From: a phage
Strand: one strand, 5' to 3'
DNA length: 64,000 bases
Sequence record: PQ826431.1
Shown here: positions 30,398 to 30,483 of the stretch, in pieces
Numbering within the stretch: position 1 is the first letter of the stretch
How the letters are laid out: the number at the start of each line of letters is the position of its first letter
Position numbers and translations under genes: made by a program
Notes under the pieces: model-generated
Databases searched by the model: none
Seen by the model: the letters and a program-made list of their open reading frames with translations, nothing else
What the model was told of the DNA's origin: nothing

Positions 30398-30483
30398 GAT
30401 GAGTTGGCTGAATGGTTTAAGCGGCGGACTGTTAATCCGTGTTCGAAAGAACGATATAGGTTCAAATCCTATACTCATCGCCA
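30398..30483 (+). tRNA. type II tRNA (long variable arm) whose simplest fold gives anticodon GTT (Asn); identity uncertain
   Basis: Acceptor GATGAGT/ACTCATC, anticodon stem GCGGA/TCCGT loop CTGTTAA, 15-nt variable arm with GTTC-GAAA-GAAC hairpin, T-arm ATAGG-TTCAAAT-CCTAT, encoded CCA. Confidence 0.5.

Follow-up and report, generated by a model that had tools for sequence, protein, structure and literature searches.

The 64,000-nucleotide stretch of phage DNA analysed here (the window) encodes an asparagine tRNA of unusual architecture, in which a hairpin arm stands in the variable region of a tRNA that reads GUU. Our preferred reading, to which we assign a probability of roughly 0.7, is that the gene specifies a functional phage tRNA-Asn that would be charged by AsnRS and decode AAC/AAU, with the hairpin as a selected addition. 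A first-pass annotation had hesitated between a noncanonical phage tRNA and a wrong fold; ARAGORN, the Rfam tRNA covariance model RF00005 and the minimum-energy (MFE) fold concur on the structure, which is also conserved and co-varying, and it is the noncanonical tRNA that stands. Because these three methods agree, the earlier observation is correct in every detail of what was seen, although the class to which it was assigned calls for some qualification.

ARAGORN reports a tRNA-Asn(gtt) gene of 86 nt at the same coordinates as first proposed, reading the anticodon from tRNA position 34 (Table 1), and RF00005 matches it over its full length (1-71) with 62.0 bits against a threshold of 29 (E 2.6e-12), aligning GUU to the anticodon position and counting 12 variable-region nucleotides as inserted. 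The ViennaRNA MFE fold (-23.7 kcal/mol) is the same five-arm structure as that of ARAGORN, whose folds were accepted as given, and it too agrees on GUU; neither ARAGORN nor the covariance model gives a Leu or Ser anticodon or a pseudogene call. The thermodynamic z-score of the fold (-1.71) is by itself not significant, and we therefore take significance from the covariance-model score and the comparative data. The acceptor stem, T arm and CCA had been described as clean and are so, with stems of 7 and 5 bp and an encoded CCA in the ARAGORN fold, and all stems are free of mismatches by both ARAGORN and RF00005; this 7/5 arrangement does not match the tRNA-Sec and allo-tRNA configurations (8/5, 8/4 and 9/3; PMC5389517). 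The anticodon loop has 7 nt with U33 and A37. The canonical class I loop of 4-5 nt is absent, and in its place the 15-nt variable arm with its own hairpin that had been noticed at the outset is recovered by both ARAGORN and the MFE fold, with a 4-bp stem, a GAAA loop and three unpaired nucleotides, situated at what is the junction of positions 45 and 46 in an ordinary tRNA-Asn. The label 'type II' holds in part: the extra arm is present, and the D arm, with G13 and A22 unpaired or mismatched, has a class-II-like form (found also in the type I tRNA-Asn of Kuttervirus Maynard), but Asn-like features mark the acceptor stem, the discriminator and the anticodon arm, and compared with tRNA-Ser the extra arm is shorter and set differently.

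Table 1. Positions in the window of the tRNA-Asn gene, its parts and the neighbouring tRNA-like elements
Feature	Position	Strand	Basis or remark
Whole tRNA-Asn(GUU) gene, encoded CCA	30398..30483	+	ARAGORN; RF00005, 62 bits; MFE fold
Acceptor stem, 5' strand GAUGAGU, 7 bp	30398..30404	+	Partner ACUCAUC at 30473-30479; ARAGORN, MFE fold
D arm GCU/AGC, 3 bp, 10-nt loop GAAUGGUUUA	30407..30422	+	ARAGORN
Anticodon arm GCGGA-CUGUUAA-UCCGU, 5-bp stem	30424..30440	+	Sequence; E. coli comparison
Anticodon GUU (Asn; AAC/AAU)	30431..30433	+	ARAGORN, RF00005
Variable region, 15 nt	30441..30455	+	ARAGORN, MFE fold
Extra stem GUUC/GAAC, 4 bp	30441-30444 with 30449-30452	+	ARAGORN, MFE fold; 4/4 pairs with compensatory changes
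GAAA tetraloop of extra arm	30445-30448	+	ARAGORN, MFE fold
Unpaired GAU, 3' end of variable region	30453-30455	+	ARAGORN, MFE fold
T arm AUAGG-UUCAAAU-CCUAU, 5-bp stem	30456..30472	+	RF00005, ARAGORN
Discriminator G73 (30480) and CCA	30480..30483	+	Sequence
Long Ser(UGA)-like tRNA	29989-30078	+	Unusual D region; no ARAGORN call
tRNA-Tyr(GUA)-like gene	30304-30391	+	Long variable arm, A73, CCA; 6 nt upstream of tRNA-Asn
tRNA-like RNA	30491-30570	+	Directly downstream of tRNA-Asn; 7-bp acceptor stem, z = -2.65

The hairpin is a selected structural addition rather than damage. The tRNA cluster of the window (29.6-31.6 kb) is 98-99% identical to those of the phAPEC8-like coliphages BI-EHEC, 536P1 and anhysbys, members of a group (Phapecoctavirus, Stephanstirmvirinae) with genomes of about 150 kb to which the phage of the window also belongs, and ARAGORN finds ten plus-strand tRNA genes in the window, whose G+C content is 38.7%. 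Across Phapecoctavirus records the 86-nt gene is 100% or 97.7% identical, with both differences in unpaired positions, and homologues of the same architecture at 74-78% identity are present in Justusliebigvirus, Epseptimavirus and Novosibvirus (both T5-like), and Mydovirus and Seunavirus (both rV5-like); the long-armed tRNA-Asn is found in Stephanstirmvirinae, Vequintavirinae and T5-like phages. Between phages the extra stem varies in a compensatory manner (GUUC/GAAC, GAAC/GUUC, AUCC/GGAU, GUCA/UGAC, GAGC/GCUC and others). Aligned with one another, 17 distinct homologues retain every one of the 24 base pairs, with 99.3% of cells paired as against 70.6% when shuffled, and double changes occur at 17 pairs, including all four of the extra stem; all seven acceptor pairs co-vary as well. 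Because those 17 homologues were picked for this hairpin geometry, tests on 94 distinct long-arm Asn tRNAs, gathered irrespective of variable-region pairing, weigh more. The variable regions of these 94 fold with a mean of -3.3 kcal/mol versus -0.57 for shuffled sequences, and hairpins of 4 bp or more arise in 48%, compared with 16% of shuffles (27% in the highest of 200 replicates). The arm of the Asn class has a geometry, given as 5' unpaired/stem/loop/3' unpaired, of 0-1/3-4/4/3-4, the window form of 0/4/4/3 being the commonest among the 94, and the tetraloop is GAAA in 38/94 and GNRA in 54/94.

Long-armed tRNA-Asn genes are common in phages and almost absent from cellular genomes. In IMG/VR, a scan for the anticodon-arm motif of Asn with GGTTC downstream at the spacing of a long arm gave at least 120 loci, and ARAGORN called 98 of the 124 matches listed as tRNA-Asn(gtt) of 79-91 nt, which comprise at least 74 distinct long-arm sequences on many unrelated tRNA backbones. 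When the spacing was left open, 15 of the first 120 IMG/VR loci (12.5%) among the matches listed were long-arm; at loci with at least three tRNAs there are about 12 long-arm and 53 ordinary tRNA-Asn genes among the matches listed, and loci with a long-arm Asn gene have a median of 10 tRNAs, likewise among the matches listed, with every frequency depending on the fixed anticodon-arm motif as well as on those matches. The same long-arm motif in one genome per species from 185,579 bacterial and archaeal species yielded 65 loci in all, of which about 17 have a credible long-arm tRNA-Asn, 11 of these 17 lying within arrays of 7-36 tRNAs; most of the other loci have no tRNA inside. When the 86-nt gene was searched by BLAST in 5,426 complete E. 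coli genomes, no full-length copy turned up and the sole hit was a chance match of 34 nt in yobD; we therefore reject an origin from the host or from a resident prophage.

Several of the cellular loci deserve separate mention. In Micromonospora/Verrucosispora (L129, L130, L139 and L180), arrays of 23-36 tRNA genes include an 89-90-nt tRNA-Asn with an extra stem of 6 bp (4 bp in L180), and L129 and L139 are chromosomal. The Saprospiraceae hits were rejected as native long-arm Asn tRNAs and are partial tRNA-Asn copies bearing a palindrome. In these Saprospiraceae/Bacteroidota MAG copies (L127, L136, L143, L144, L149, L163, L173 and L175) a palindrome with a CCGATAGCTATCGG core occupies the variable-loop position; they usually adjoin an intact ordinary tRNA-Asn, are tandem in places, and look like duplications by an integrating or palindromic element. 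Among the viral loci listed (L005-L294), similar extra arms are carried by other class I tRNAs, namely Ile(UAU) (9/18), Cys(GCA) (8/49) and Thr(UGU) (7/46), those of Ile(UAU) being 21-27 nt long with the loop motif CAGAU(U/A), and none is seen in Lys(UUU) (0/61) or Arg(UCU) (0/63). Many raw ARAGORN calls of tRNA-Leu in the viral loci and arrays have variable loops of only 4-7 nt, and are candidate class I Leu tRNAs.

From identity rules, the tRNA of the window is likely to be charged with asparagine. PMC9976931, citing Li et al. 1993, gives E. coli AsnRS identity as the three anticodon bases and G73, and both elements (G34 U35 U36 and G73) are present. From C25 to U43, a run of 19 nt at 30422-30440, the sequence does not differ from that of E. 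coli tRNA-Asn, for which the reference sequence used has a 100% match in 5425/5426 genomes. We compared the 94 long-arm Asn tRNAs with 103 ordinary Asn and 111 Ser tRNAs from the collected loci, and the acceptor stem and discriminator of the long-arm class have the statistics of ordinary tRNA-Asn, not of tRNA-Ser. For long-arm Asn, ordinary Asn and Ser respectively, U1-A72 occurs in 60%, 72% and 1%, G1-C72 in 33%, 18% and 89%, G2-C71 in 38%, 41% and 91%, A3-U70 in 14%, 8% and 83%, and G73 in 90% (85/94), 87% and 67%. The window tRNA, whose first acceptor pairs are G1-C72, A2-U71 and U3-A70, is without the bacterial Asn hallmark U1-A72 and has G1-C72 instead, as do the enteric phages as a group, the type I Maynard tRNA-Asn among them. 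G1-C72 and G2-C71 are described as invariant in E. coli tRNA-Ser in PMC9976931, and with A2-U71 in place of G2-C71 the window tRNA does not have that set of pairs, nor does it have a serine anticodon (NGA or GCU). The arm geometry in collected loci is 1/5-6/4/1 for Ser and 0/3/4/3 for Tyr, so that the long-arm Asn class is closest to Tyr and unlike Ser. A73 is present in 61/63 Tyr and 89/90 Leu tRNAs of the collected loci, and G73 in the window tRNA excludes Leu and Tyr identity.

The core of the molecule is less clearly of one kind. Profile HMMs of tRNA bodies, from which the anticodon stem-loop and variable region had been removed, score the window tRNA at 24.0 and 23.2 bits for Ser versus 21.1 and 19.6 for ordinary Asn, and they class the 92 long-arm bodies scored as 35% Ser, 33% Asn, 11% Tyr and 10% Leu; with the anticodon stem-loop kept, 62% are Asn-like, a figure biased by the motif, which fixes that segment in both Asn sets. 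Judged by its sequence, the window tRNA is a hybrid with Asn-type ends and a class-II-type core, and because the D arm is class-II-like some serylation may occur. Synthetases of class II, to which AsnRS belongs, reach the tRNA on the side of its variable loop, and the arm could for that reason get in the way of AsnRS.

If the gene acts as a functional tRNA-Asn, the tRNA would be transcribed within the phage tRNA cluster, host AsnRS would most likely charge it with asparagine via GUU and G73, and it would decode AAC/AAU, which account for about 5.8% of codons in this AT-rich phage. The hairpin would then alter recognition by tRNA-binding proteins besides AsnRS, notably host defence nucleases that cut tRNA-Asn, with the host-identical anticodon arm kept for charging and modification while the overall shape departs from that of the host tRNA. 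That the arm is an anti-defence device shielding the tRNA from tRNA-targeting nucleases is a tentative extension that we consider somewhat unlikely, although it is the best lead on the role of the arm. In E. coli tRNA-Asn(GUU) the PARIS nuclease AriB makes its cut at the 40/41 junction and touches the D loop as well; the Lys, Thr and Asn tRNAs of T5 are jointly required to neutralise it, and full bypass of PARIS needs the T5 tRNA-Asn (PMC12409363). A helix 3 nt from the AriB cut site, between both contact regions, could plausibly block binding, and a tRNA shielded in this manner would still be fully chargeable, and modifiable via its host-identical anticodon arm. Against shielding, the cut-site context U36-A-A-U-C/C41 (cut at the stroke) and U16 are both retained in the window tRNA; AriB's prime target tRNA-Lys(UUU) has an extra arm in none of the 61 cases among the viral loci listed; and in those loci extra arms are not enriched with U36 (PARIS motif UAAU; 6.1% vs 4.4%, p = 0.26). 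The lack of U36 enrichment and the armless Lys(UUU) weaken the AriB-shield idea, and we have lowered its probability for that reason. The same shape trick may be used by the Thr(UGU), Cys(GCA) and Ile(UAU) tRNAs of other phages.

The T5-like phages have two alleles at the Asn locus. T5 tRNA-Asn itself (L295 13953-14030) belongs to class I, is 78 nt long and has diverged in its anticodon stem-loop; this allele is found in 134 records, and the other allele is an 83-nt long-arm form with a near-host stem-loop, found in about 291 T5-like records. The class I allele is overlapped by an ORF in T5 and DaisyDussoix, annotated in DaisyDussoix as a putative homing endonuclease. The tRNA-Asn of Bas34 gives no PARIS bypass (PMC12409363), and what is annotated in Bas34 (Escherichia phage SelmaRatti; L299 10599-10681) as a 77-nt tRNA-Asn is really the long-arm allele, with U32 and three acceptor-stem mismatches and no ARAGORN call. 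We set Bas34 aside as a counter-example to shielding, since a damaged long-arm allele says nothing either way; these features of the allele may explain the failed bypass.

Other accounts of the gene are to be weighed against a functional tRNA-Asn with a selected arm. An ordinary working tRNA-Asn could carry the hairpin as a neutral passenger, either a tolerated insertion or a recombination patch from the adjacent class II genes, which we judge unlikely. The variable loop is the one insertion-tolerant place of tRNAs, a tRNA-Tyr-like gene precedes this one by 6 nt and two Ser-like genes are close by, the sequence of its arm resembles that of the phage tRNA-Ser(GCU) arm, and extra arms are present at ~5% in many other viral tRNA isotypes among the loci listed. 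Yet compensatory changes preserve the hairpin across families that are only 74-78% identical, one form of it is strongly favoured (a stem of 3-4 bp, and a GNRA loop in 54/94), and it recurs on many unrelated tRNA-Asn backbones, in about 12% of the viral motif-matching Asn tRNAs listed versus ~17 loci in 185,579 cellular species. A neutral insertion should decay and should occur outside viruses, and both distribution and maintenance therefore count against neutrality. The arm may have arisen by insertion into an Asn tRNA, or through a one-base change of the anticodon, starting from either Ser GCU or Tyr GUA; the window tRNA resembles its own Ser(GCU) neighbour (58/74) and a type I phage Asn (57/72) to about the same degree, and an insertion is favoured because U1-A72 members bear the 4-bp D stems of type I tRNAs.

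A missense or dual-identity tRNA, to which the anticodon-blind SerRS would add serine by way of the extra arm and G73 such that AAC/AAU are partly read as Ser, is quite improbable in our view, although it has several points in its favour. Partial SerRS determinants are present (extra arm, G73, G1-C72, C11-G24 and a Ser-like D arm), HMM scores of the body alone lean slightly to Ser, the arm of the phage tRNA-Ser(GCU) nearby is just as short (4 bp, GAAA loop) and the two tRNAs agree at 58/74 aligned positions, serine identity depends mainly on the variable arm according to PMC9976931, and misreading tRNAs have precedents in nev-tRNAs (PMC3333845) and allo-tRNAs (PMC5389517). However, acceptor stems across the long-arm class are Asn-type (U1-A72 in 60%), the anticodon arm is an exact copy of that of host tRNA-Asn, and Asn codons number 57.5 per 1000 (about 5.8%) in the window ORFs, such that wholesale misreading as Ser would be very costly; the gene is nevertheless kept in hundreds of genomes of several phage families. 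We regard as very unlikely a tRNA that serves mainly as decoy or inhibitor of a tRNA-targeting nuclease, whether a variable-arm reader like PtuAB on tRNA-Tyr or AriB. The Tyr-like arm geometry would suit it, and inhibition of AriB through competition by overexpressed viral tRNAs has been raised as a possibility (PMC12409363), but everything that translation requires is in place (stems free of mismatches, U33, A37, T loop, G73 and CCA), which a decoy could do without, and the Asn identity elements are conserved across the long-arm class. A pseudogene or prediction artefact is hardly credible: degenerate tRNA-like genes do lie nearby in relatives ('tRNA-Pseudo' in Mt1B1_P17), and the long-arm Asn allele of the T5-like Bas34 does have its three acceptor-stem mismatches, but the window tRNA scores 62 bits on the Rfam model with zero stem mismatches, and all stems co-vary. 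Hundreds of phage genomes keep the gene, annotated as tRNA-Asn, and together with the stem covariation this is why we do not take it for a pseudogene.

The surroundings of the gene include other tRNA-like elements (Table 1). The tRNA-Tyr-like gene scores 39 bits with Rfam, has no ARAGORN call and an MFE fold that is not a cloverleaf, and is labelled tRNA-Tyr, tRNA-Pseudo-GTA or tRNA-OTHER in relatives; the best Rfam match of the Ser(UGA)-like gene is tRNA-Sec, at 37.4 bits under a threshold of 47. In the RNA at 30491-30570 the T arm has an 8-nt loop, UAUCGAAU, and an extended hairpin replaces the anticodon arm; this RNA has the motif GUAGAGUUAAG(G)UAAACC in common with T5 'rna3, putative tRNA-like RNA', which is likewise directly downstream of the T5 tRNA-Asn. 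A Pfam scan of nine neighbouring ORFs identified the large terminase only, and nothing tRNA-related. We also note an 87-nt gene of Salmonella phage SalP219 (L298 54-140), annotated tRNA-Lys and without an ARAGORN call, in which the extra length is in the D-arm region rather than in the variable region.

Compared with canonical tRNA-Asn (E. coli asnT/U/V/W and Kuttervirus Maynard), the window tRNA has the same anticodon, G73 and anticodon stem-loop, and it matches Maynard in the D arm and variable-loop flanks, but its variable region is 15 nt with a hairpin where theirs is a 5-nt loop, and it has G1-C72 where E. coli has U1-A72; the homologue in Justusliebigvirus alia amounts to the Maynard architecture with a 10-nt insert between positions 45 and 46. 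It resembles bacterial class II tRNAs (Ser, Leu and Tyr) in its five-arm cloverleaf, 3-bp D stem and enlarged D loop, and its arm is nearly the same as that of bacterial tRNA-Tyr (0/3-4 bp/tetraloop/3 nt), although its anticodon belongs to a class I amino acid and, unlike tRNA-Ser, it is without G2-C71 and has a shorter arm that is set differently (4 bp and 3 nt versus 5-6 bp and 1 nt). A long variable arm with the anticodon of a class I amino acid is also seen in the nematode nev-tRNAs (PMC3333845; PMC4033280), the nearest precedent. Those, however, have class II identity elements, leucine charging and weak expression, whereas the window tRNA has the elements of its own anticodon, G73 and an Asn-type acceptor stem in place of nev-type Leu determinants, and predicted Asn charging, and the long-arm tRNA-Asn genes are viral, widespread and situated in tRNA operons.

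The second-nearest precedent is that of nuclease-escaping phage tRNAs, which are copies of a defence-targeted tRNA altered near nuclease contact sites, as in T5 tRNA-Lys/Thr/Asn against PARIS AriB (PMC12409363) and T5 tRNA-Tyr, with its distinctive variable loop, against retron-Eco7 (PMC11555353, PMC13096335). The variable loop is itself contested between phages and host defences. Known escape tRNAs involve base substitutions, in contrast to the host-identical anticodon arm and added helix of the window tRNA, for which resistance is hypothetical. In engineered tRNA-Pyl a longer variable arm excludes one protein and not another (PMC7609411), and such steric exclusion while charging persists is what we propose here, although that case is synthetic, concerns archaeal Pyl systems and is without a natural Asn example.

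The gene itself is already known and is routinely annotated as tRNA-Asn in GenBank; its five-arm fold, the covariation, the breadth of phage families that have it and its near-absence from cells are points on which we came across no published account. We found no description of a long-arm phage tRNA-Asn in the full-text literature, a body that lies mostly outside subscription journals and the 1980s work on T5 tRNAs, and because annotation pipelines label these genes as plain tRNA-Asn, miss them, or bound them wrongly (as in Bas34), the class is invisible in current records. Reviews confine long variable arms to Ser, Leu, bacterial Tyr and Sec tRNAs, as an identity signal (PMC4033280, PMC7609411), and a class I isotype with a conserved, co-varying arm on otherwise Asn-type identity elements contrasts with this rule. 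The class is common in well-studied phages, including EPS7/T5-like, rV5-like and phAPEC8-like phages. If AsnRS charges these tRNAs, then the shape of a class II tRNA is acceptable to a class IIb synthetase, which would bear on identity rules and on orthogonal tRNA design. Shielding is directly testable because PARIS, a cutter of E. coli tRNA-Asn, is already in hand, and if the arm does block defence nucleases it would be a new mechanism in the conflict between phage and host over tRNAs, a widespread second escape route, by shape, beside that of base substitution.
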